Source: a virus (taxonomy: Duplodnaviria > Heunggongvirae > Uroviricota > Caudoviricetes). From it: a DNA stretch of 41,075 nucleotides. Positions within the stretch are counted from its first letter, which is position 1. Every line of letters starts with the position of its first letter. Both the position numbers and the translations under genes were made by a program. The notes beneath the pieces were generated by a model. That model was not told the origin of the DNA, did no database searches, and was given only the letters and a program-made list of their open reading frames with translations. Positions 1,459 through 41,075 of this stretch are shown here, piece after piece. The stretch lies in IMG/VR virus record IMGVR_UViG_2917393062_000004, one strand, 5' to 3'.

Positions 1459-2622
1459 TTACACATCATTAGTACCTTCCTTATTTTTTGACTGGGACAA
1501 ATTTGGGACCGATGGGTTCAGGATCGAGTCTATTTGCCGTGCGTGTTCGGTAAGGTGATTAGGTGCAAGGTGAGCATATCGACGAACCATTTCGATAGAC
1601 TCCCAGCCTCCCATTTCCTGTAACACTGACAATGGGACTCCGGCTTGAACCAGCCAACTTGCCCAGGTGTGTCTCAAGTCGTGAAATCTGAAATCATCAA
1701 TACCAGCCCGTCTCAGCGCCGCTTTCCAGGCTGTGTTTGCGTCATACCGCATCTTCCTTACTGTTGGCGCTTTCGTTCCGTCTGGTTTGGTACAGCTTTC
1801 CTTGTACACAAATACCCAACGGTGATGATTCCCGATTTGTTTTTTCAATACGCGACATGCAGTATCATTCAGCGCAACGCCAATTGCGCGGTTTGATTTA
1901 CTCTCTTCCGGGTTTATCCATGCCACCCGGCGCTGCATATCTATTTGTTGCCATTCAAGGTTGATGATGTTCGAGCGTCTTAAGCCTGTTGCCAGTGCAA
2001 ATTCAACAACAGACTTTAATGGCTCCGGACATTCATCAATCAGCCTTTGTGCTTCATGGGGCTCCAGCCAGCGGATCCGTTTATTCTTTGGTTGAGGCAC
2101 TTTAATAATTGGTGCCTTATCCAGCATTTTCCATTCACGCTCTGCGGCTCTTAGTAGGGCCTTTATAAATGAAAGATGCGTAGCCTTCGTTGCAACGGAC
2201 GCTGGTTTTGGCGTGTATTCTGGAACAGGTTTCCCTTTTTTTCTGCATGCTTCTGCCCTGAGTTTCCAGTTTTCCTCATGACGCCGGTTCGTCATTTTCT
2301 GCATTGCTGAATAAATTTTTGATTCAGTAATGTCTCTTAGTTGCATTCCTGCGAAATGTTGAAGCCAGAATCCGATCCGGCTTTTGTCATCGTCCAGTGA
2401 TTTTTTATGTGCTTTCTCTTCAAGCCACCTGACACACGCTTCCTCGAACGTTATATCAGGTATTTCACCAAGTTTGCTGACCCGCCATGCTTCAGCCTTT
2501 AGCTTGTCATGGAGTTCTGTCGCCTGCCTTTTGTCCTTTGTTCCAAGAGACTGTTTAAATCTTTTACCGTTCGGCAATGTGAAACTGGCGTACCATATTT
2601 CACCTCTGCGGAAGAGTGACAT
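1459..2622 (-). CDS. Tyrosine-type site-specific integrase
   Basis: 387-aa ORF with C-terminal catalytic-domain signature ([41 protein letters not shown]); adjacent to tRNA 3' end. Confidence 0.9.
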
Positions 2623-12148: not shown

Positions 12149-13144
12149 GTGACCGTGAGAGCACTACTGACTCCTGAAATTGCCCCGCGTATGGGGATCG
12201 TATTGTTCAGGCCAGGTTCAGAGCTGATGCCCCTGTTTATGCAGGGGCGTGTCCTGCTGGAGCCTGAGCCGGAACGTTATTCATCTTTCGCCAGTGGTGC
12301 CGTTCCGGCGGCATCACAACCGCTGGTGGATGATCCTGCCGTTCGGGCCGTGTTCCGCAATGAGGCAGTGATCCGTCGTGCTGGTGGCGTGGAATGTCTT
12401 GAAAGCTGGTTACTTCGTGAAAAGGGCTGTCAGTGGCCTCATTCCGACTGGCACAGCGAGAACATTACCACAATGCGACACGCTCCGGGCGCAATCCGTC
12501 TGTGCTGGCACTGCGATAACCAGCTGCGCGATCAGTTCACGGAACGGCTGGAATCAATGGCAACGGATAACTGTGCCCGCTGGGTGTTGTCTGTTGTGCG
12601 TCGGGATCTCGGTTTTGATGACAGTCACGTTGTGACAATGCCGGAACTGTGCTGGTGGCTGATTCGTAATGATCTGGCGGATGCCTTACCGGAAAGTGCA
12701 GCCCGTAAGGCACTGAGATTACCGAAGCCTGTTGTGCCGTCTGTCACCCGGGAAAGTGACCTTGTGCCTTCGGTTCCTGCCACCAGCATCATCCAGGATA
12801 AGGCGAAAAAGATGCTGGCGCTGAAAGTGGATCCGGAGTCGCCGGAGTCTTTTATGTTACGCCCCAAACGTCGCCGCTGGGTTAATGAAAAGTACACGCG
12901 CTGGGTTAAGACGCAGCCGTGCGCATGTTGTGGAAAGCCTGCTGATGATGCCCACCACCTGATAGGTCACGGTCAGGGTGGAATGGGTACAAAAGCGCAT
13001 GACCTTTTTGTGTTGCCTTTGTGCAGAAAGCATCACGACGAGCTGCATGCGGATACCGTGGTATTTGAAGAGAAGTATGGCTCCCAGTTGGAGCTGATAT
13101 TTCGTTTTATTGATCGTGCGCTGGCAATTGGCGTGCTGGCCTGA
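12149..13144 (+). CDS. DUF968-type phage protein (Cys/His-rich C-terminal domain)
   Basis: C-terminal CACCGKPADDAHHLIGHGQGGMGTKAHDLFVLPLCRKHHDELH typical of DUF968 nin-region proteins as recalled. Confidence 0.6.
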   Translation: MTVRALLTPEIAPRMGIVLFRPGSELMPLFMQGRVLLEPEPERYSSFASGAVPAASQPLVDDPAVRAVFRNEAVIRRAGGVECLESWLLREKGCQWPHSDWHSENITTMRHAPGAIRLCWHCDNQLRDQFTERLESMATDNCARWVLSVVRRDLGFDDSHVVTMPELCWWLIRNDLADALPESAARKALRLPKPVVPSVTRESDLVPSVPATSIIQDKAKKMLALKVDPESPESFMLRPKRRRWVNEKYTRWVKTQPCACCGKPADDAHHLIGHGQGGMGTKAHDLFVLPLCRKHHDELHADTVVFEEKYGSQLELIFRFIDRALAIGVLA

Positions 13145-13158
13145 TTTGGTGGAGAAAG

Positions 13159-13509
13159 TTGATGCGTGATATGTATGAAGTATTGGACCGCTGGGGAGCA
13201 TGGGCTGCAGCAGAAAATAGTGGTGTGGACTGGCAGCCGATAGCGGCTGGTTTCAAGGGACTTTTACCACACGGTAAAAAGTCACGTCTCCAGTGTGATG
13301 ATGATGAAGGCATCATGATAGATAGTTGTGTGGCTAGGTTGCGTAAATATAAGCCGGAAGAGTATGAGCTGATAATTGCTCACTTTGTTATCGGTATCTC
13401 ATTACGCACTATTGCGAAGAAGAGAAAATGCTCTGATGGGACTATAAGAAAAAAGTTGCAAGCTGCATTGGGATTTATTGATGCAGTTATATATATAATA
13501 CATGGGTAA
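13159..13509 (+). CDS. Late-gene antitermination protein Q (QuuD-like family)
   Basis: 116-aa ORF; N-terminal VLDRWGAWAA...WQPIAAGFKGL matches recalled QuuD/Q family; located just before the lysis region. Confidence 0.75.
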   Translation: MMRDMYEVLDRWGAWAAAENSGVDWQPIAAGFKGLLPHGKKSRLQCDDDEGIMIDSCVARLRKYKPEEYELIIAHFVIGISLRTIAKKRKCSDGTIRKKLQAALGFIDAVIYIIHG

Positions 13510-13516
13510 TTTATTA

Positions 13517-13535
13517 GACGGCCATATTGGCCGTC
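13517..13535. terminator. Perfect 8-bp GC-rich hairpin between convergent Q and cargo operon (possible bidirectional terminator/stabiliser)
   Basis: GACGGCCA-TAT-TGGCCGTC flanked by AT-rich sequence; overlaps stop codon of the minus-strand gene; no clean U-tract. Confidence 0.4.
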
Positions 13536-14721
13536 AGCTAAATAAATATGTAATAGCATAAGGCGTAAGTAAAAAGTAGAATCTAAATGTAAGATATAAG
13601 CCACATAAAACTATAATTCCTAATGAGGCAAAAACAACTTTCTGAACAAGCAATCTTGTGGTTAAACTATCAAATGTATCCTTTATATCTTCGTAAATAG
13701 CCTTGAAGTTATATTCTGCTTGTTGTTTTTTATGATTTAACTCATCATTTATTGCTGTTAAAGTTTGCCATTGATTAAATAGAACAAATAGAATCATAAT
13801 AGTGAAGAACAATGCACCCAACACTACAGCTGTGTTTATTAATGCTTGACTATCCCAACCATTAGCCTGCTTCATTTGAGTCGCAACGATAATTGTTGCG
13901 ACGGGGATACCTAATATCTGATTTTGTATGTCACTGAATACTTTATGTATTTTCCCCATCTCTTCTATTTTGGCTACTCGTAACTGATCCAGTATTTTCT
14001 CGTAAGAAAAACCAGAAACGAATACTTTGTATCCTTTTTGATAACTTTCATAAAGTTGTCCTAAATCCCTTAACATGAAGGAAAAAGAGGTTTCTTTAGT
14101 TTTAGATTCACATGATGATTTTATACTACTTGCTAAAATAGTAAGTTTTTGATCTTTATGCGTATCTTCTGCAAAGTTTGCGATCAAATTATGAATCAGA
14201 TCTCCATTAACATTCATAAGATCATCGCTAGAATAATTTACTGGAATTTTTAGTACGTTGGATTCGACGAATACCAATTCAAAATTTGTTTCATCTAAAT
14301 AAGCAGAACAATCTTTGAATAAAGTAATTAAGCTCAAAACATCTCTGTACTTGGATATAATAGCAGGCGACTTTTTATCCCTGTTGTGATAATTAAGTTC
14401 GATTATAAAGAAGTTACTGGCTTCCTTTATCCTATTTTTAGGATTTTTTAAATACTCATTAAAAGAGAAATGTAGCTGCCCCAATCGTAATTTGGGGGGG
14501 GTTATATGTAAGGTTATAGTTTGGCCTAACTTAATGTTGCCAGATTCAAGGGTGATGCCAAAATCATGGGGATTCTCTGTGATATCGTTGATGATGTCAC
14601 AGAGCTCCTCGTTTGAAAGAATGAGTGATGCTTCAGATAGGGTACCTGCAAATGTAGCGGCCTTGTAAATAGTCACTAAGTCTTTGAAGGTTCTCTGATT
14701 GTTACTGCTCATCCTCTTCAC
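13534..14721 (-). CDS. Cargo protein B: 395-aa protein with large N-terminal soluble domain and 2-3 C-terminal transmembrane helices; no recognised domain
   Basis: Hydrophobic segments ALINTAVVLGALFFTIMILFVLF and VVFASLGIIVLCGLYLTFRFYFLL near C-terminus; GTG/ATG start overlaps the stop of the upstream gene (translational coupling); GC content about 35-38 percent versus about 50 percent in flanks. Confidence 0.75.
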   Translation of the reverse strand: MKRMSSNNQRTFKDLVTIYKAATFAGTLSEASLILSNEELCDIINDITENPHDFGITLESGNIKLGQTITLHITPPKLRLGQLHFSFNEYLKNPKNRIKEASNFFIIELNYHNRDKKSPAIISKYRDVLSLITLFKDCSAYLDETNFELVFVESNVLKIPVNYSSDDLMNVNGDLIHNLIANFAEDTHKDQKLTILASSIKSSCESKTKETSFSFMLRDLGQLYESYQKGYKVFVSGFSYEKILDQLRVAKIEEMGKIHKVFSDIQNQILGIPVATIIVATQMKQANGWDSQALINTAVVLGALFFTIMILFVLFNQWQTLTAINDELNHKKQQAEYNFKAIYEDIKDTFDSLTTRLLVQKVVFASLGIIVLCGLYLTFRFYFLLTPYAITYLFS

Positions 14722-15736
14722 CTAATTCTGATAAGATCTCTGATCTTAGCGTATCCGGAATCTCGGTAAGTATCAATTTATCGTTTTCTGAATCATAAAG
14801 AACGCTGCCATCATGCAAGGCCGCACGCTCGAATTTCAGAGACCAATGTTTGGACTTTCCTTTGAAACTAACAAGCCCACGTATAACGTTGCCATCAGGC
14901 ACGAACCCATCAGAGAACTCCAGATCGTCATTGGTTAACTTTTCAACTAACAACTCAGGAGCAGTTGGCCATATCTCGTTTGCAAAAATTTGAGTGTCGA
15001 AAGTTTCACCAGAACGATTTAAATTTTTTAATTTTTCATGAGCCTTATTTAGGAACTCTTCACGTGCCTCTGGTTCAAAACCTCTTTCAGTAGCAAATTC
15101 TAAAAGTGCATTCCGTAATTTTGTTGTTTCTTGTTTGGCAATTAGAATATCGTTGCAACCTAAAAACTTTTTGAAATAACCTGCTACTGAATTTTGCCCC
15201 TTTAGAAAGCTAATATATCTCTCTTTGCCATTCTGGCGCCCAGTTAAGTCAATTCGTCCCGCTACTCGAAGTTTAGCAATGTCTAGATATTCACTTTCTT
15301 GAATTTCAAAATCGTGGACTGAAGAGCCAACTGCTGATGTTAGGATTGCAACCATCAAATAATGATTTCCATTTACCTCATTATGGGCAATTATTACATA
15401 ACCACCAGTAGACATTGATTCATCATCGGCTCTGGCTTTTAAATGATTGATCATTCGGATACTAGTATCATAAAAACTATGTGTTTTATTTACGAAATAA
15501 TCATCAACGATATTACCCATAGGGTAACTATCGCGGTCATCTTCAAATTTCCCATATCCTTTACCTGCTCTCCCAGAGTACCTTTCAGTAAGTGCGTTAG
15601 AGAGGTCTTTTGATGCTTGCTGAACAGGTTTTTCTGAAGGACAAGGAATAATGGTGGCTAACCCCTGTTGTTCCTTGTTCATAATGTGAACAATAAACTT
15701 ATGAGTGATATTAGTGGGGGTCGCTGATGCAGTCAT
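14702..15736 (-). CDS. Cargo protein A: YejK/NdpA-family nucleoid-associated protein homolog (344 aa)
   Basis: Shares recalled YejK motifs in order (GGYVII, YLMVAILTS, YLDI, GRIDLT, RYISFLKG, YFKKFLG, C-terminal LILTEIPDTLR); AAGGA RBS; low GC. Confidence 0.7.
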   Translation of the reverse strand: MTASATPTNITHKFIVHIMNKEQQGLATIIPCPSEKPVQQASKDLSNALTERYSGRAGKGYGKFEDDRDSYPMGNIVDDYFVNKTHSFYDTSIRMINHLKARADDESMSTGGYVIIAHNEVNGNHYLMVAILTSAVGSSVHDFEIQESEYLDIAKLRVAGRIDLTGRQNGKERYISFLKGQNSVAGYFKKFLGCNDILIAKQETTKLRNALLEFATERGFEPEAREEFLNKAHEKLKNLNRSGETFDTQIFANEIWPTAPELLVEKLTNDDLEFSDGFVPDGNVIRGLVSFKGKSKHWSLKFERAALHDGSVLYDSENDKLILTEIPDTLRSEILSELGEEDEQ

Positions 15737-15852
15737 AACAACATCCTTTTAATGGTTTTGAACAATTGGTGTTGATAATACTTCAAAAAATACTAATGCG
15801 TACGCAAAAAATACGGTACTCTGTTAAGAGTGGTTACTTCGCCACACAGCTT

Positions 15853-15880
15853 AAACCCGCCGTCGAGCGGGTTTTGTCGT
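15853..15880 (+). terminator. Intrinsic terminator upstream of holin (tR'-like); candidate late promoter PR' lies about 60-90 nt upstream
   Basis: Hairpin CCCGC-CGTCGA-GCGGG followed by TTTTG; position between Q and S matches the lambda PR'-tR' arrangement; promoter hexamers not confidently assigned. Confidence 0.55.
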
Positions 15881-16026
15881 TTCTGGGCTTTGGTATTCGT
15901 TGGGCTTGGTCTATCTAGCTCTTATCCATTGGCTCGGCTTCTTTTACGTTTCCGCTTCTGATTTGCGGTTCGTGGTACTCCCTCAATTTGCACCTCTTGT
16001 ATCGGCGAGGTGAGAGATAACTACAA

Positions 16027-16353
16027 ATGCCTCATAACCCAAATACTTGGCTGGAGTTGGTCCAGAGCTGGTGGCGTGGAGACACACCGCTGGGCGCAGT
16101 GATTATGTCGATTGTTATGGCTGGTTTGCGCATTGCCTATTTTGGCGGTGGTGGTGGCTGGAAGCGAAAAACACTCGAAATTCTACTCTGTGGCGCTCTG
16201 ACGCTGACTTTTGCATCCGCTCTTGAGTATGTCGGATGGCCTAAATCGCTTTCTGTTGCCATTGGTGGTGGGGTGGGGCTGATCGGTGTCGATGCTATTC
16301 GTGGGGCTGCAATGAGAGTAATCGGTAATAAGTTTGGTGGCTCTAAGGAGTAA
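16027..16353 (+). CDS. S: Holin (lambda S-like, class I)
   Basis: 108-aa ORF with multiple TM segments and charged C-terminus, immediately upstream of lambda R-like endolysin. Confidence 0.8.
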   Translation: MPHNPNTWLELVQSWWRGDTPLGAVIMSIVMAGLRIAYFGGGGGWKRKTLEILLCGALTLTFASALEYVGWPKSLSVAIGGGVGLIGVDAIRGAAMRVIGNKFGGSKE

Positions 16354-16356
16354 TTT

Positions 16357-16833
16357 ATGCAGGTACTAAATTCCCAGCGTAAAGCTTTCCTCGATATGGT
16401 GGCATGGTCAGAAGGAACGGATAACGGGCGACAACCGACACGTAACCACGGTTATGATGTTATTGTTGGTGGCGAACTGTTCACTGATTACTCCGATCAC
16501 CCTCGCAAACTTGTCACGCTAAACCCAAAACTCAAATCAACAGCCGCCGGACGTTACCAGCTTCTTTCCCGTTGGTGGGATGCCTACCGTAAGCAGCTTG
16601 GCCTGAAAGACTTCTCTCCAAAAAGCCAGGACGCTGTGGCATTGCAGCAGATTAAGGAGCGTGGCGCTTTACCGATGATTGATCGCGGTGATATTCGTCA
16701 GGCTATCGACCGTTGCAGCAATATCTGGGCTTCACTGCCGGGCGCTGGTTATGGCCAGTTCGAGCATAAGGCTGACAGCCTGATTGCAAAATTCAAAGAG
16801 GCTGGCGGAACGGTCAGAGAGATTAAGGTATGA
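16357..16833 (+). CDS. R: Endolysin, lytic transglycosylase (near-identical to lambda R)
   Basis: 158-aa product [79 protein letters not shown]... matches lambda R over most of its length as recalled. Confidence 0.95.
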
Positions 16834-17267: not shown

Positions 17268-17517
17268 TAGCGATAATTTTACTCATCATCCTTCACATCT
17301 GGCTCTGTAGACAGGGTGGTGCTTACTTCTGGAGCGAATCCAGATTAAACATCTCATTGCTGATGCTTGATATTGAGCATCTGGCGCGCGGTAAGGGCTG
17401 TGTTGAGATAAGTGCCAGTTCATTACAAAGCTATATCTAATGGAACCTGAAATAATTTGTCATTGTCATGACAAGAAAATTCATTAATGATGAGCTCTCA
17501 TTATACGGGAGGTAGAT

Positions 17518-17766
17518 ATGGCATTTCGTTATTTTGAACTTACCGAAAATATTCCTTTTGAGGATGCAAGAGAGCTTCACGTACAGTTCAAACACCACTT
17601 AGAATATGTTGTAAAGGCGTTATTTATGCCAGGAACACATGAAAAGCATTTAATTGTTGAAGGCCGGGATGACGAATCGATAACACAGATATTTGGTGGG
17701 CATGATGAAAAGTTTATGCATCTTTATCATATCGATGAATATGAAAAACGTGAAGACTTAATCTAA
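17518..17766 (+). CDS. Hypothetical small protein (82 aa), AT-rich moron
   Basis: ORF with GGGAGG RBS in AT-rich DNA after the lysis cassette; palindromes upstream. Confidence 0.45.
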   Translation: MAFRYFELTENIPFEDARELHVQFKHHLEYVVKALFMPGTHEKHLIVEGRDDESITQIFGGHDEKFMHLYHIDEYEKREDLI

Positions 17767-17881
17767 CCTCCTACGACTGTTTTTATTGCCATCATAAAAG
17801 CCATTCCTTGCAGAGTGGCTTTGATAATGGATATCCCAACAAGCGGATAAGACAATAAATATACCCACCAGGGGATAAACA

Positions 17882-18127
17882 ATGTCTAAAATCACGGTTA
17901 CACCTGCATAGCAGATCCGCTTAAACCTGCTGGCGAAACTGAACTATGACACCGCCGCTGCAGCAGACGCGATTAAGTTTGTTGGTGAGGATCCGTTGAA
18001 GTATCAAATCTTTGTGAACCAGTTAAGCTGGGTAACATCTGAAAGCGGGCTGGTAGCCAGAACGACGAAAGCTATCAAAGAGTCGGAAGACACACTACTG
18101 TGGTTTGAAGCTGAATCTGGTTCATAA
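17882..18127 (+). pseudogene. Small ORF interrupted by in-frame TAG at codon 10 (17909-17911); 72 further in-frame codons lacking any Met
   Basis: RBS AGGGGA 6 nt before ATG; MSKITVTPA-TAG-QIRLNLLAKLNYDTAAAADAIKFVGEDPLKYQIF... read directly from sequence. Confidence 0.5.
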
Positions 18128-18175
18128 GTGAATGAATGTGGTAATTTAATCCTCCGCAAAAAAAAGGGGATAAAA

Positions 18176-18397
18176 ATGCCAAAGAATGTCATAGCTATTT
18201 TACCGGGTGACGCGTTTGATCATGTTGTTGTCCAGGACGACCTGGAGATTGTTACCTTCAGGGGTGACAAGGGCGGCGTGCTTACTATGCCTATCGAGGA
18301 GTACGAACTAGACGGGATAAGTTATAACGTCGCACGTTGTGACGGTATGGTCACTGACGAAAAAGTTGAGAAGGCTATCAGACACTTCACCAAGTAA
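18176..18397 (+). CDS. Hypothetical small protein (73 aa; start at MPKNVIAIL)
   Basis: AAAGGGGA RBS; followed by an intrinsic terminator. Confidence 0.5.
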   Translation: MPKNVIAILPGDAFDHVVVQDDLEIVTFRGDKGGVLTMPIEEYELDGISYNVARCDGMVTDEKVEKAIRHFTK

Positions 18398-18414
18398 TAA
18401 TCAGCTTCCGAACC

Positions 18415-18440
18415 AAGCCTCGCAATAGCGAGGCTTTTTA
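18415..18440 (+). terminator. Intrinsic terminator
   Basis: AAGCCTCGC-AATA-GCGAGGCTT followed by TTTTT. Confidence 0.75.
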
Positions 18441-18451
18441 ACGACAGAGGT

Positions 18452-18646
18452 ATGACAGTGGTTCTTACAGCTAAGCAGTTTGAAGACCTTGCATCCTTCG
18501 CGAAGGAAGATAGCCAGCCTCAATACACCATCGCAACCGGAATAATCCCAGAATTCGAAGATGATTGTGAGTTTATCCCCGTTTATGCCGGGCTCATCGC
18601 TTATTTAGAGTTACTGAATCACGGTGTATTGCAACTCGACCACTAG
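18452..18646 (+). CDS. Hypothetical small acidic protein (64 aa)
   Basis: ORF with AGAGG RBS; no recognised domain. Confidence 0.4.
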   Translation: MTVVLTAKQFEDLASFAKEDSQPQYTIATGIIPEFEDDCEFIPVYAGLIAYLELLNHGVLQLDH

Positions 18647-18720
18647 CGACATTACGCCAAGTATTCATCAAGTGCCTAGTTTAATGTTAAATTATTCCCT
18701 CATTCATAAAAGGGAATGTT

Positions 18721-19122
18721 ATGAAAATAGATCACGAGTATTTGAAAGGTCTTTTGGAAGCTTTCGAGGCGTCTGAAGAGCCGCATACTGATATAAAGCA
18801 GCTGCAGCTGGCTGGGTATGACTACAGCACCGATGAATTTTTATTCCATATGCGTTTATTGGCTGATCGTCAACTAATTGCTAGAACAGACGGCAAGTAT
18901 GGGTTTGGTTTCTCTGAGGCTGCTGATGGAGGATCATGGTTCGTTATACCGTTACGATTAACTTCAAGCGGTCATGACTTCCTTGAAGCTCTCAGGAATA
19001 AAGAGGTTTGGAATTCTCTCAAGACCGGCTTTAAAGATGCAAGCATTGGAACATTAGTTGACGTTTCAAGGCGTTTGCTGGATGGTTATATTCAGAAAAA
19101 AATTGACGACTTAATTGGCTAA
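18721..19122 (+). CDS. Hypothetical protein, DUF2513-like (133 aa)
   Basis: N-terminal MKIDHEYLKGLLEAFE resembles recalled DUF2513 proteins; AT-rich; own terminator downstream. Confidence 0.5.
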   Translation: MKIDHEYLKGLLEAFEASEEPHTDIKQLQLAGYDYSTDEFLFHMRLLADRQLIARTDGKYGFGFSEAADGGSWFVIPLRLTSSGHDFLEALRNKEVWNSLKTGFKDASIGTLVDVSRRLLDGYIQKKIDDLIG

Positions 19123-19138
19123 TATTTTATATAACCAT

Positions 19139-19167
19139 CAGCCCCGCAATCGCGGGGCTTTTTTTAT
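19139..19167 (+). terminator. Intrinsic terminator
   Basis: AGCCCCGC-AAT-CGCGGGGCT followed by TTTTTTT. Confidence 0.8.
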
Positions 19168-19257
19168 TGCCATTATGATGGCAGATACATTGCTATGGCG
19201 TAACAGGATTTCAACTATGAACCCAACAGAAGCAGCTACATCACCGAAGGACGGATA

Positions 19258-37957: not shown

Positions 37958-38401
37958 ATGAACTCAGTATTCTTTTCACCCGGAAGTAAAAGTTTTTATC
38001 TACAAGAATTGTTTCCAGAATATGAGGATGCGGGAACGCTTCCAGATGATGTTATTGAAATTACCCGAGAAACATATGAGCAATTTCTTGGGCTGCATCC
38101 AGAAGGGAAAGAAATTGGCGCTGACAGTTCAGGACGGCCAATATGGATTAATTCCCCACCGCCTTCAAAAGAGGATGAGGTGTTGATGGCTGAAATGAAA
38201 AAAATATCTTTGGTTTCAGAAGCCAATACCTACATCAACACCCATCAGTGGCCTGGCAAAGCTGCTATTGGTCGTCTGAAAGGTAACGAGCTGGAGCAAT
38301 ATAATTTATGGCTGGATTATCTAGACGCACTGGAACTGGTTGATCCCTCCAGTGCTCCAGATATTGAATGGCCTACGCCTCCGGCAGTTCAGGCCAGATG
38401 A
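37958..38401 (+). CDS. Tail fibre assembly protein (Tfa, U-like)
   Basis: 147-aa ORF after the fibre gene; convergent 3' overlap with alternative Tfa. Confidence 0.75.
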   Translation: MNSVFFSPGSKSFYLQELFPEYEDAGTLPDDVIEITRETYEQFLGLHPEGKEIGADSSGRPIWINSPPPSKEDEVLMAEMKKISLVSEANTYINTHQWPGKAAIGRLKGNELEQYNLWLDYLDALELVDPSSAPDIEWPTPPAVQAR

Positions 38402-38975
38402 CATTCGGCGCGGTGCTGGTATCTGTTGCCGTCACCGCGTCAATGTAATCCAGCACAGCGTTAAGCCGGGTTGTTTCTGCCTGCGTCAGTTTCCGTCCGG
38501 CCTGTAATTTCAGCTGAATCAGACTAATGGAAGCCATTGCAGCATCAATCAGTGACTGGCGCTGTGCTTCTGCCGCGTCTACTGCGGCGCTATGCTGTGC
38601 CTCAGTATCGGTCACCCATTTCTCACCATCCCATTTATCGTATGGCGTTAATGGGGCGATAGTGGTTGTATTTTCAGGGTAATCACCCGGAGCTGTGATT
38701 TCTTTTGATTCTCCTGTTTCAGTGCTATAGACCGTTTCACCGCGATGGTCTGGCACATATTCCCATGAGTTAAAATCTGCAGAACGGCAAATTGCATAAC
38801 CAGCTTTATATGAGCCAGGAGCATCTAAACAGGAACTTGCCGGGATACCGACGCCGACAGCGATATATTCATTTGATGTGGAAATATATTCCCGTGTTTC
38901 GCCATCATAGTTATAGACGGTAATATTCCCCGCCTTCGTGGCAATAAGCTCGATATTTAATACGGCTTTATTCAT
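38373..38975 (-). CDS. Alternative tail fibre assembly protein (U'-like)
   Basis: 200-aa ORF inside the invertible segment; C-terminal region similar to the plus-strand Tfa (TAPNVIWPELPEA vs SAPDIEWPTPPAV). Confidence 0.7.
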   Translation of the reverse strand: MNKAVLNIELIATKAGNITVYNYDGETREYISTSNEYIAVGVGIPASSCLDAPGSYKAGYAICRSADFNSWEYVPDHRGETVYSTETGESKEITAPGDYPENTTTIAPLTPYDKWDGEKWVTDTEAQHSAAVDAAEAQRQSLIDAAMASISLIQLKLQAGRKLTQAETTRLNAVLDYIDAVTATDTSTAPNVIWPELPEA

Positions 38976-39421
38976 CAGGCTGCCCTCACGATATAGTTAA
39001 ATGCAATATTCCGTGGGCGAGTATCGGCAGGAACGACATACATTTCACCAATTGCCCGCTCATTAGAGTTGTTCAGCAATAGGCTTGAGCCATTACTGTC
39101 ATGACCCGTAATTAAGATATCATTGGACAAAATAAGTGAGCCTGTACCTGCAGGAATACCATAAATTCCCATATCAAATTTAATATAACCAACACGCGCG
39201 CTCTGTGCAGACATAACGCTGCGACCAGTATCTACTGAACGACCGTCATCCCAGCCACGAATAAACTCACCGCGTAAATCAGGCAATTTATTTGTCGGGT
39301 AAGCCTTTGCCAGTTCTGGGTATTCTTCAGCGGAAAAAGCCGCACCATTGCATTTCAGCCAGCCTGTTGGCGGAGTGGCTGAAGGCCACGGAACAGGGAC
39401 ACCAACAGGTAATGCAGAGCC
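38975..39421 (-). CDS. Alternative tail fibre variable C-terminal domain (S'v-like), expressed only after inversion
   Basis: Tail-collar-like motif (LPVGVPVPWPSATPPTGWLKCNGAAF); no independent N-terminus; reads through the right crossover site; shares GLGE junction with the constant part. Confidence 0.65.
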   Translation of the reverse strand, partial: GSALPVGVPVPWPSATPPTGWLKCNGAAFSAEEYPELAKAYPTNKLPDLRGEFIRGWDDGRSVDTGRSVMSAQSARVGYIKFDMGIYGIPAGTGSLILSNDILITGHDSNGSSLLLNNSNERAIGEMYVVPADTRPRNIAFNYIVRAA

Positions 39422-39447
39422 TTCTCCCAAACCAACGTTTATGAAAA
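39422..39447. repeat. Right crossover site of invertible segment
   Basis: ttctcccaaaccaacgtttatgaaaa; resembles recalled hixL (TTCTTGAAAACCAAGGTTTTTGATAA); inverted copy of the left site. Confidence 0.7.
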
Positions 39448-39501
39448 TGCAGAAATAACGAGCAAATGGCATCATTCCTGCTTTTGTCAGGGAGATCCAC
39501 C

Positions 39502-40056
39502 ATGCTTATTGGCTATGTACGCGTATCAACAAATGACCAGAACACCGATCTACAACGTAATGCGTTGAACTGTGTAGGATGTGAACTGATTTTTGAAGAC
39601 AAGATAAGCGGTACGAAGTCCGAAAGGCCCGGACTGAAAAAACTGCTCAGGACATTATCGGCAGGTGACACTCTGGTTGTCTGGAAGCTGGACAGGTTGG
39701 GGCGCAGTATGCGGCATCTTGTTACGCTGATAGAAGAGTTGCGCCAGCGTGGCGTGAATTTCCGAAGCCTGACTGACAGTATTGATACCAGTACCCCAAT
39801 GGGCCGTTTCTTTTTTCATGTCATGGGAGCCCTGGCTGAAATGGAACGAGAACTGATTGTTGAACGAACAAAAGCTGGACTGGAAGCTGCTCGCGCACAG
39901 GGACGAATTGGTGGACGTCGTCCCAAACTTACACCAGAACAATGGGCGCAGGCCGGGCGATTAATTGCATCAGGCGTTCCTCGCCAGAAGGTGGCGATCA
40001 TCTATGATGTTGGTGTATCGACACTGTATAAGATGTTTCCGGTCGGAGATAAATGA
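39502..40056 (+). CDS. Serine DNA invertase (Pin/Gin/Hin/Cin family)
   Basis: N-terminal MLIGYVRVSTNDQNTDLQ with catalytic Ser; resolvase domain and C-terminal HTH; next to inverted crossover sites. Confidence 0.92.
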   Translation: MLIGYVRVSTNDQNTDLQRNALNCVGCELIFEDKISGTKSERPGLKKLLRTLSAGDTLVVWKLDRLGRSMRHLVTLIEELRQRGVNFRSLTDSIDTSTPMGRFFFHVMGALAEMERELIVERTKAGLEAARAQGRIGGRRPKLTPEQWAQAGRLIASGVPRQKVAIIYDVGVSTLYKMFPVGDK

Positions 40057-40395
40057 AACCGCAGGCTCGTCGTATGCAAGAACGTGCTGCGGCTGGCTGG
40101 TGAACTTCCGATAGTGCGAGTATTGAATGATTTACAGCCGTTATTGATTTTACATATTTTTTGTATGAAAGGATTAGCGCTTCCTCCCACCGATCCTCCA
40201 TGACTTTACGCCACTGTCTCTAGGACTGCTATGTGCCAGTAGCAGACTAGTGATCGCTAGGCTTGAATTCATTCGTATTAGCGCCAAGTGGATAATAAAT
40301 GGTGAAATCCATTAGTCATTACTTTATCATAAGCTCGTTATATAAAGATTTTAGTATTCGTAATTCTTTTCTTTGTTTAAGATGATGAAAATTAT

Positions 40396-40420
40396 ATGAT
40401 ATGATATGATATGATATGAT
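40396..40420. repeat. Pentanucleotide tandem repeat (ATGAT)x5 in the upstream region of the terminal cargo gene
   Basis: Five perfect tandem units about 28 nt before the ATG at 40449; units contain -10-like TATGAT hexamers. Confidence 0.85.
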
Positions 40421-40448
40421 GTGAAGAAGTATAGAGGGATTAATCATC

Positions 40449-41075
40449 ATGAAAAAAATAATATATACTTTTTCTTTGGCTGTGGCTTTATTATTGGCGT
40501 TAAGATGTATCGCCTATATTGATTTTTCTGAAAAAGACATGATCAAGTCAATCATTCCTGCTTGGATTCAAGCCATTGGTAGCATTTTAGCAATTATTAT
40601 TGCCGGTATGATCTCGGCCAATCAAATTAAACATGAGAAACAGCTTGAAAAGAGAAAGGTAGCAGAGTCAGATTTGTCTAAAATGCATATAGTAAGAGCG
40701 CTGATAATACGTTCGTTAACTTTAATGAATGAGGTTCGTCAGGCAATTGAGCGTGGCGAAGAAAGCGACTTTCAGCAAGTGTCTCCTTGGACTATGCGTA
40801 ATACAAAACGTGCAATTGATAATTTAAATTTATTTGAAATACCAGAGGGGATGTTAGCTCTAGATCTGTTGGCTATAGGTCCATCTCTCGAGGAAATAGC
40901 AACCTTATGGGAGCGGTGTATGGAGGAGTCACTACATACTGAAAATAACAAGCCAACTATTGATTCTTACAATGAGCTTGATCAAGGCTCTCAAGAGGTT
41001 TTGAAAATATGTGAAGCCGCTTTTAAATTGGCTACACAAGAGGTTAATCGGCTTGCAGCTATCGTTAAAGAGTAA
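40449..41075 (+). CDS. AT-rich cargo gene: membrane protein with two N-terminal TM helices and helical cytoplasmic domain (208 aa)
   Basis: AGAGGGA RBS; TM segments FSLAVALLLALRCIAYI and AIGSILAIIIAGMISA; low GC; stop at last base of window. Confidence 0.65.
   Translation: MKKIIYTFSLAVALLLALRCIAYIDFSEKDMIKSIIPAWIQAIGSILAIIIAGMISANQIKHEKQLEKRKVAESDLSKMHIVRALIIRSLTLMNEVRQAIERGEESDFQQVSPWTMRNTKRAIDNLNLFEIPEGMLALDLLAIGPSLEEIATLWERCMEESLHTENNKPTIDSYNELDQGSQEVLKICEAAFKLATQEVNRLAAIVKE

Follow-up and report, generated by a model that had tools for sequence, protein, structure and literature searches.

Genetic organization of the cassette

The virus record IMGVR_UViG_2917393062_000004 of IMG/VR (Caudoviricetes) is a DNA stretch of 41,075 nucleotides, which is referred to here, in its whole length, as the window. 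Between the gene of the Q antiterminator and that of a lambda-family holin, the window carries a cassette of two minus-strand genes: (i) geneA (14702..15736), whose 344-amino-acid product belongs to the NA37 (YejK/NdpA) family of nucleoid-associated type (PF04245 and phrog_3767), and (ii) geneB (13534..14712), encoding a partner protein of 392 amino acids, predicted to be membrane-anchored (hydropathy and an AlphaFold2 model). The former is the proposed sensor (PagA/DS-1A-like) and the latter the proposed effector (PagB/DS-1B-like) of an anti-phage system. The cassette had been picked out in a sequence-only reading of the window, made without database searches, as two coupled genes of low GC content located between Q and the holin gene and forming a candidate defence or exclusion module; the coordinates and the overlap of the genes were reproduced in the present analysis. 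The names geneA and geneB are used below for the genes and for their products.

The TAA stop codon of geneA and the ATG start codon of geneB are contained in an overlap of 11 nt (14702..14712, minus strand), which implies translational coupling. The longest open reading frame (ORF) of geneB begins with a GTG codon at 14721 (13534..14721, minus strand); it would encode 395 amino acids, the length reported at first, and would extend the overlap to 20 nt. However, the homologues of geneB have ~392 amino acids in nearly all cases, and therefore the ATG codon at 14712 (protein sequence MSSNNQ...) is the likelier start.

The GC content of geneB and geneA is 33.0 and 38.6%, respectively, and that of the whole cassette (13510-15789) is 35.5%, compared with 52.2% in the left and 50.7% in the right flank. 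These values agree with the contrast to flanks of about 50% that had been noted before. The cassette is the minimum-GC stretch of its length (2.28 kb) in the window (mean 50.5%, standard deviation 5.3%), and the GC content at third codon positions is 0.30 in both genes vs. 0.56 in the neighboring DUF968 gene. Both features point to horizontally acquired cargo. The two ORFs are not a product of chance, because random codons at 35% GC would include ~7% of stops, giving by our own arithmetic a probability of ~1e-11 for an open frame of 344 codons, and because the homologues of geneA and geneB alike number in hundreds.

GeneA, a protein of the NA37/YejK family

A profile search placed residues 15-330 of geneA on positions 1-324 of the 325 positions of the Pfam family NA37 (PF04245), with a score of 232.9 bits (E = 8.3e-69; gathering threshold 24.6 bits), i.e., over the full domain. 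Matches were also obtained with phrog_3767 (E = 4e-80) and with the YejK structure 9be2 of the PDB (E = 1.7e-19). The assignment to the YejK/NdpA family, made originally from the order of its motifs, is thereby borne out. The score against the NCBIfam equivalog model of YejK (NF001557) is 164.8 bits, which is under the cut-off of 341, and geneA is accordingly classified on these profile matches as a full-length NA37/YejK-family protein that is not YejK itself. It shares with YejK of Escherichia coli the Pfam family and, as predicted, the two-domain fold, but differs from it in the equivalog score, in the replacement of five of six basic pore residues (see below) and in being encoded by a prophage together with an obligate membrane partner.

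GeneB, a predicted membrane-anchored protein with a large soluble domain

GeneB belongs to phrog_5023, a family of unknown function (E = 7e-80), and has no match in Pfam or PADLOC v2. As modeled, the protein is composed of an N-terminal alpha/beta domain (residues 1-216), a long helix (217-277), which bears the most conserved motif of the family, and two strong hydrophobic helices (~288-318 and ~350-384); a weaker hydrophobic helix is found near residues 268-280 in the AlphaFold2 model and in the hydropathy scan. The count of two to three C-terminal transmembrane helices given in the sequence-only reading was thus a fair one. Within the hydrophobic helices, the polar residues N293, N313, Q314, R353 and Q357 are invariant. 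The mean model confidence (pLDDT) is 78 for the full-length protein and 91.6 for the N-terminal domain alone (predicted template modeling score, pTM, 0.86). No informative structural relative of this domain was found in the PDB or among viral models (Foldseek against BFVD gave nothing below E = 0.06), and the structural matches of the whole chain are generic helical bundles, so the description of geneB as a protein with a large soluble N-terminal part and no recognized domain holds.

A search with the geneB profile among 1.84 billion representative sequences (clustered at 50% identity) returned 1,113 clusters at E<=1e-3, 310 of them at E<=1e-30. Almost all of these proteins have 380-430 amino acids and are matched over the full length. 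A truncated copy of geneB (P0020; 267 amino acids, 100% identical, 30 member sequences) is present in E. coli.

Co-inheritance of geneA and geneB

The neighborhoods of geneB relatives were surveyed in 57 loci, originating from 18 species genomes and 39 viral contigs. In 54 of them, a NA37 gene of the same orientation ends 0-20 nt from the start of the geneB relative. The remaining three loci comprise two in Cupriavidus that hold C-terminal fragments and one that is cut off by the end of its contig. Failure of the two genes to co-occur elsewhere had been named beforehand as an argument against a functional module; what the survey revealed is adjacency in nearly every locus. The pair occurs in Gamma-, Beta- and Alphaproteobacteria (Enterobacterales, Shewanella, Acinetobacter, several Betaproteobacteria and Mesorhizobium), and the degree of identity to the window pair varies in parallel for the A and the B protein (r = 0.97). 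Judged from these loci, geneA and geneB are obligately co-inherited. In other genera the pair is flanked by genes of antiterminators, DUF968 proteins, holins and lysozymes, with DNA methylase genes or a SIR2 gene as additional neighbors in some cases. The orphan C-terminal halves of geneB in Cupriavidus, which are not accompanied by a NA37 gene, were found in two loci (L016 and L017), one of them on a plasmid contig.

Relationship to the DS-1 anti-phage system

DS-1, system 1 of DefensePredictor, is a validated anti-phage gene pair of E. coli (DeWeirdt et al., Science 2026, PMC13092281). It is composed of DS-1A (WP_000355468.1; 391 amino acids, a zinc finger plus NA37), followed by DS-1B (WP_000150292.1; 404 amino acids) (PMC13092281). 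The pair was tested with its native promoter in strain MG1655 against a panel of 24 phages (PMC13092281), and the protection, expressed as negative log of the efficiency of plating, was 7.6 for Bas1, 2.7 for Bas26, 1.7 for Bas3, 1.7 for T3, 1.0 for T5 and 0.9 for T7 (PMC13092281, Table S7).

Both window proteins match the NCBIfam models built for this system. GeneA scores 56.2 bits (E = 2.8e-15) against NF053868 (DS1_1_antiphage, "nucleoid-associated anti-phage protein"), and geneB scores 70.2 bits (E = 1.7e-19; residues 69-333) against NF053869 (DS1_2_antiphage, "anti-phage protein"). In BLASTP comparisons, geneA shares 25% amino acid identity with DS-1A over 197 residues (E = 3e-10) and geneB shares 28% with DS-1B over 104 residues (E = 4e-7), while hhalign aligned the geneB family with DS-1B over 278 columns (probability 92%, E = 6e-7). 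Moreover, in two pairs encoded by viral contigs (L056 and L057), both proteins match both families; they form a bridge that unites the window family and DS-1 in one superfamily. On the basis of these matches, geneA and geneB are classed as remote homologues of DS-1A and DS-1B.

The two systems share the two-gene operon structure and the gene order, with NA37 followed by a partner of ~400 amino acids with a hydrophobic C-terminus, and in related E. coli prophages DS-1 is found in the same slot between Q and the holin gene, with the same orientation. They differ in several respects. DS-1A has an N-terminal zinc finger (CxxC...CxxC), whereas geneA begins with MTASATPTNITHKF..., contains no cysteine pair and matches NA37 from residue 15. 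The hydrophobic segments of DS-1B are weaker than those of geneB in the same scan (one segment at threshold 1.5), and the DS-1 genes are separated by a gap of 2 nt, whereas the window genes overlap. The measured activity is that of DS-1, whereas the window pair is known here from its sequence.

A cargo slot between Q and the late block

The genes upstream of the cassette (RusA, KilA-N, DUF968 and a PF06530-type Q) are located on the plus strand. The Q gene (13159..13509, plus strand; Phage_antitermQ, PF06530, E = 1.2e-44) forms the left border of the cargo slot. The right border is a conserved lambdoid backbone block (15790..16026, plus strand), followed by the genes of the lambda-family holin (16027-16353), lysozyme and Rz. 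Syntenic prophages retain the order KilA-N, DUF968, Q, minus-strand cargo, holin and lysozyme, in which the cargo varies. In alignments, the Q alleles differ from one another toward the 3' end of the gene, at the start of the cargo. Beyond position ~15790, six prophages with five different cargos are near-identical, sharing the palindrome GCGTACGC, a terminator-like hairpin and the holin gene. In the cargo-free phage PhiR5_1, the backbone block starts at the Q stop codon, and the slot is therefore the junction of Q and the late block.

Apart from the window cassette, the following cargos were identified in this slot: (i) a complete Kiwa system (L058; KwaA, E = 2e-83, and KwaB, E = 2e-150); (ii) a KAP NTPase, the PADLOC candidate PDC-S20 (L059; E = 1e-176); (iii) a Clp-fold protease annotated as "SDH family Clp fold serine proteinase", without a PADLOC match (L061 and L062); and (iv) DS-1 itself (L060 and L063; WP_000150292.1 plus a NA37 gene, on the same strand). 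In one lambdoid prophage lineage, the junction of Q and the late block is thus a site at which defence cargo is swapped. The Clp-fold protease may be regarded, by association, as a candidate defence gene. Literature searches for a described defence hotspot between Q and the holin gene yielded nothing specific, and the slot offers a cheap place to look for further defence systems.

Among 5,426 complete E. coli genomes, the exact cassette is present in 16, with the annotation "hypothetical protein" and "nucleoid-associated protein", compared with 106 genomes for DS-1, which is always located beside a Q gene (106/106) and is already labeled "anti-phage" in the newest RefSeq annotations. Part of the backbone block is present in ~2,500 of the 5,426 genomes. 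A synthetic query, in which the Q gene was joined to the right flank, detected no empty site with this Q allele among the E. coli genomes searched. DS-1A is damaged in two strains (L060:2267-3444 and L063:2450-3444): a frameshift leaves 287 amino acids of it in LWY24, and UTAK-10 has two separate ORFs in its place. Both strains retain an intact DS-1B.

In Shiga toxin-encoding (Stx) phages, the stx genes are located downstream of the late promoter. In the window, this promoter and its leader presumably lie inside the backbone block (15790-16026), upstream of the holin gene, as suggested by the arrangement of PhiR5_1, although the promoter could not be placed in the sequence. With the promoter at this location, the cassette slot adjoins the stx site and is not identical with it; the earlier placement of the cassette at the stx site has to be corrected, since the genes sit beside it, between the Q stop codon and the block that abuts Q in PhiR5_1.

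Comparison with PANGU, Kiwa and RexAB

In type II PANGU, a YejK-like nucleoid-associated protein (NAP), Pag2A, is combined with Pag2B, a transmembrane effector whose soluble N-terminal domain is described as "DNA-mimicking" (DMK) (Li et al., bioRxiv, April 2026, doi 10.64898/2026.04.06.716658). Both proteins are required and neither is toxic alone; against T4, the system confers 3-4 logs of protection with an abortive-infection phenotype and growth arrest (doi 10.64898/2026.04.06.716658). Pag2A is located first on the nucleoid and leaves it upon infection, and it binds the Pag2B domain with a dissociation constant (KD) of 19 nM, while the step by which Pag2A activates Pag2B is stated in the preprint to be unknown (doi 10.64898/2026.04.06.716658). 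Type II PANGU thereby supplies the only model of mechanism at hand for such a pair, in which the NAP departs from the damaged nucleoid and binds the soluble domain of the effector, with abortion of the infection as the outcome. At the level of the architecture described in the preprint, the window pair resembles type II PANGU: (i) the first component is a YejK-like NAP (IPR007358/NA37); (ii) the operon is bicistronic, with genes less than 40 bp apart (an 11-nt overlap in the window, tight spacing in 54/57 loci); and (iii) the effector has a C-terminal transmembrane region (predicted at residues 288-318 and 350-384 of geneB). In contrast to the PANGU effector with its acidic DMK domain, the soluble part of geneB is not conspicuously acidic (net charge -4, isoelectric point 6.0), and the pair is located in a prophage slot and not in a classical defence island.

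Kiwa likewise combines a membrane protein with a DNA-binding protein and is an alternative occupant of the same prophage slot. However, its gene order is opposite, and KwaA is a small multi-pass protein of 173 amino acids, in contrast to the 392-amino-acid geneB with its large cytoplasmic domain. Homology to Kiwa was rejected, as no KwaA or KwaB (DUF4868) model of PADLOC matches either protein and BLASTP of geneA against KwaB gave E = 0.36.

The RexA/RexB system of lambda, to which the pair had been likened at first, is similar in its logic of a cytoplasmic sensor and a membrane effector, in its presence in a lambdoid prophage and in its expression in the lysogen, which is predicted for the window pair; the rexAB genes differ in position, being part of the immunity region. 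The comparison is retained as an analogy of logic and dropped as a relationship of sequence (geneB vs. RexB, hhalign probability 1.2%; geneA vs. RexA, BLASTP E ~1).

Proposed function of the cassette

We consider it probable that the two genes constitute an anti-phage system carried by the prophage, of the class that combines a nucleoid-associated sensor with a membrane effector, belonging to the DS-1 superfamily and following the type II PANGU design. A defence role appears by far the best-supported reading, because both genes are homologous to DS-1, the pair is obligately co-inherited and Kiwa, PDC-S20 and DS-1 occur as alternative occupants of its slot. The cassette is most likely a divergent member of a defence class that was published in 2025-2026. 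The statement of the sequence-only reading that the pairing occurs in no named defence system is thus superseded by the remote homology to DS-1 and the likeness to the type II PANGU design. Of its proposal of an uncharacterized defence module, the defence part is well supported by the DS-1 homology, the co-inheritance and the shared slot, while the view of the module as unnamed is out of date. A match to an already catalogued system had been given there as a reason to abandon the proposal; this applies only in part, because the pair, although related to DS-1 and similar in design to type II PANGU, stands apart as a distant subfamily: it does not reach the cut-offs of the DS-1 models, and PADLOC v2 does not include it.

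The mechanism outlined below is modeled on DS-1 and PANGU or on the anatomy of the two proteins, as regards expression in the lysogen, DNA binding, relocation, binding between geneA and geneB, the membrane effect and the abortive outcome, and our confidence in each individual step is lower than in the defence class as a whole. In the lysogen, the conserved element 5' of the operon would drive its transcription separately from that of the phage late operon, and the overlapping genes would be translated together. GeneA would act as a YejK-like dimeric DNA clamp on the host chromosome, whereas geneB would be inserted into the inner membrane by its two C-terminal hydrophobic helices, with the 280-residue N-terminal part exposed to the cytoplasm. 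An infecting phage that damages or degrades the chromosome would free geneA, which could then bind the cytoplasmic domain of geneB and switch on the membrane module. The helices of geneB would form or open an oligomeric pore, for the lining of which N293, N313, Q314, R353 and Q357 seem suited, and the resulting de-energization of the cell would abort the infection. Lambdoid phages are not known to degrade host DNA, so the resident phage would not trigger the system.

Several observations weigh against this interpretation. The scores obtained with the DS-1 equivalog models are far from their cut-offs (56.2 vs. 330 bits for DS1_1 and 70.2 vs. 315 bits for DS1_2), and PADLOC v2 gives no match for geneA or geneB. 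DS-1 and PANGU^Ecu differ in phage spectrum, and hence phage specificity cannot be transferred to the window pair. The DNA binding of YejK needs the basic pore residues R173/R176/K177 and R276/R280/K284 (PMC11229321). At these positions geneA has Q181/N182/S183 and G282/R286/S290, five of which are not basic, as is the case in most of the family; the only pore residue kept is the equivalent of R280 (K or R in 93% of 43 distinct family members). DNA binding by geneA may therefore differ from that of YejK, though 15 other basic positions are conserved in the family. Residues 1-280 of geneB, with a net charge of -4 and an isoelectric point of 6.0, are only mildly acidic (the median for the soluble part in the family is -9, with an isoelectric point of 5.16, range 4.7-8.2), and the "DNA-mimic" property of PANGU is not evident from the composition of geneB. 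A sigma-70 consensus scan, which returned overall fewer sites than in shuffled sequences, detected no canonical -35 box and called no promoter 5' of geneA, and the -35 box could not be placed by hand either. Finally, the frameshifted and split DS-1A genes in two of the strains inspected indicate that cargo of this kind can decay.

A further possibility, which we put forward tentatively and regard as doubtful, is that the window pair represents a subfamily whose sensing and effector chemistry differs from that of DS-1 and type II PANGU. Having lost the pore residues of YejK, geneA might then respond to something other than the integrity of the bulk chromosome, e.g., to the ends of phage DNA, to a phage protein or to the state of its membrane partner, and geneB might combine a fold without solved relatives with a NAP-gated channel lined by N293/N313/Q314/R353/Q357, while the junction of Q and the late block might be a general defence slot of lambdoid prophages. 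If true, the pair would lend itself well to studies of the step by which a nucleoid protein activates a membrane effector.

Direct, non-abortive immunity of the Kiwa or superinfection-exclusion type appears unlikely. According to this explanation, geneB would sense phage attachment or DNA entry and would release or recruit geneA to clamp the incoming phage DNA, blocking its replication or transcription, and the cell would survive. A genuine Kiwa system, of formally the same architecture, occurs in the same slot; the 7.6-log effect of DS-1 on Bas1 is of a size often seen with direct immunity, and geneA, having lost the pore residues, need not bind the bulk chromosome. Against it stand the lack of a sequence relationship between geneA and KwaB, the failure of the KwaA and KwaB models to match, the reversed gene order and the behavior of type II PANGU, in which the NAP is present on the nucleoid before infection and dispersed thereafter, with growth arrest of the abortive type.

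A role outside defence, as a prophage nucleoid-organizing or regulatory module in which a NAP tethered or regulated by its membrane partner tunes, e.g., host or prophage expression or induction, is in our view distinctly improbable. YejK is a housekeeping NAP (PMC11229321). NA37 homologues of mobile elements can serve as regulators; NdpA2 is reported to control the transfer of the integrative and conjugative element PAPI-1 (PMC8565334), and NAP genes are reported to occur commonly on mobile elements (PMC6606824). However, both window genes are homologous to an experimentally protective pair, the pairing with the membrane partner is strict, the slot otherwise holds defence systems and geneA falls under the YejK equivalog cut-off. 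Least probable of all is a toxin-antitoxin pair stabilizing the prophage, with geneB as a membrane toxin whose action geneA restrains: overlapping two-gene operons with a membrane protein fit such a pair and many prophage accessory genes are toxin-antitoxin systems, but in PANGU neither gene is toxic alone and the NAP is an activator and not an antitoxin, the geneB orphans of Cupriavidus that lack NA37 are truncated, and searches of Pfam, PADLOC, phrog and NCBIfam revealed no similarity to known toxin-antitoxin families.

That such a pair should serve in defence has ceased to be surprising. Immunity based on NAPs entered the literature as late as 2025-2026, with an explicitly unsolved step between the sensor and the membrane effector. 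The family represented by the cassette is large and uniform, with 1,113 cluster representatives, and has members among Gamma-, Beta- and Alphaproteobacteria; to date its proteins carry the annotations "hypothetical protein" and "nucleoid-associated protein", and they are missed by PADLOC v2 and by the DS-1 cut-offs. It could add to the catalogue of defence systems and, being diverged, serve as a second system in comparative work on the mechanism. The conserved polar residues of the geneB helices, the confidently modeled cytoplasmic domain and the altered pore residues of geneA provide handles for mutation.

Putative expression signals of the cassette

The region 5' of geneA (15737..15805, minus strand), found to be conserved in the alignment, contains a Shine-Dalgarno sequence AAGGA (plus-strand positions 15744-15748), a T-rich tract, a -10-like TATTAT (in minus-strand sense; plus-strand positions 15775-15780) and an 8-bp palindrome, GCGTACGC (15798-15805), located exactly at the border of cargo and backbone. 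A noncoding element of ~35 nt, TGCGTACGC-ATTAG-N-TTTTTTGAAGTATTATC, which includes the TATTAT, the T-rich tract and AAGGA, is invariant or nearly so across 10 loci, even though the encoded A and B proteins share just 57-88% identity with those of the window. The palindrome GCGTACGC is common to the DS-1 and Kiwa cargos, while the KAP and SDH loci carry GCGGTCCGC instead. The 5' element and the palindrome may constitute a promoter plus operator of the cassette, possibly arranged back-to-back with the phage late promoter.

Between the convergent Q and geneB genes there is a perfect 7-bp hairpin, GACGGCC-ATATT-GGCCGTC (13517..13535), which overlaps the stop codon of geneB and may serve as a bidirectional terminator. 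It was not called by the terminator scan because it is not followed by a T-run. The scan detected a strong intrinsic-terminator-like hairpin with a T-run at 15853-15874, inside the backbone block. An Rfam scan of positions 13000-16400 gave no credible match.

A 77-bp stretch of the backbone block (15799-15875), including the terminator-like hairpin, shares ~91% nucleotide sequence identity with lambda, 434 and related phages, at positions ~46.7-47 kb of their records. On the lambda map, this position presumably lies beyond the lysis genes and not beside Q, so this small element seems to have been reused at different places in lambdoid genomes.

Other features of the window

Host DNA makes up the left end of the window, with a gene of the aldehyde-dehydrogenase family (1-1254) and a tRNA-Thr(CGT) gene (1369-1444). 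A tyrosine integrase gene (1459-2622, minus strand) directly follows the tRNA gene, and the window thus appears to contain a prophage integrated at or next to tRNA-Thr(CGT). Near the right end, a serine recombinase/invertase gene (39466-40056; Resolvase and HTH_7 domains) is accompanied on the opposite strand by tail-fibre assembly and tail-collar genes (38373-39475); by its gene content, the region 38373-40056 has the arrangement of an invertible tail-fibre segment predicted to serve host-range switching. Two further low-GC patches may hold additional accessory cargo: (i) positions 17300-19200 after Rz (GC content 0.35-0.44), with small ORFs without a Pfam match and a DUF2513 protein gene (18721-19122), and (ii) positions 40000-41075 at the right end (GC content 0.38), with an ORF lacking a Pfam match (40449-41075) that runs off the window.

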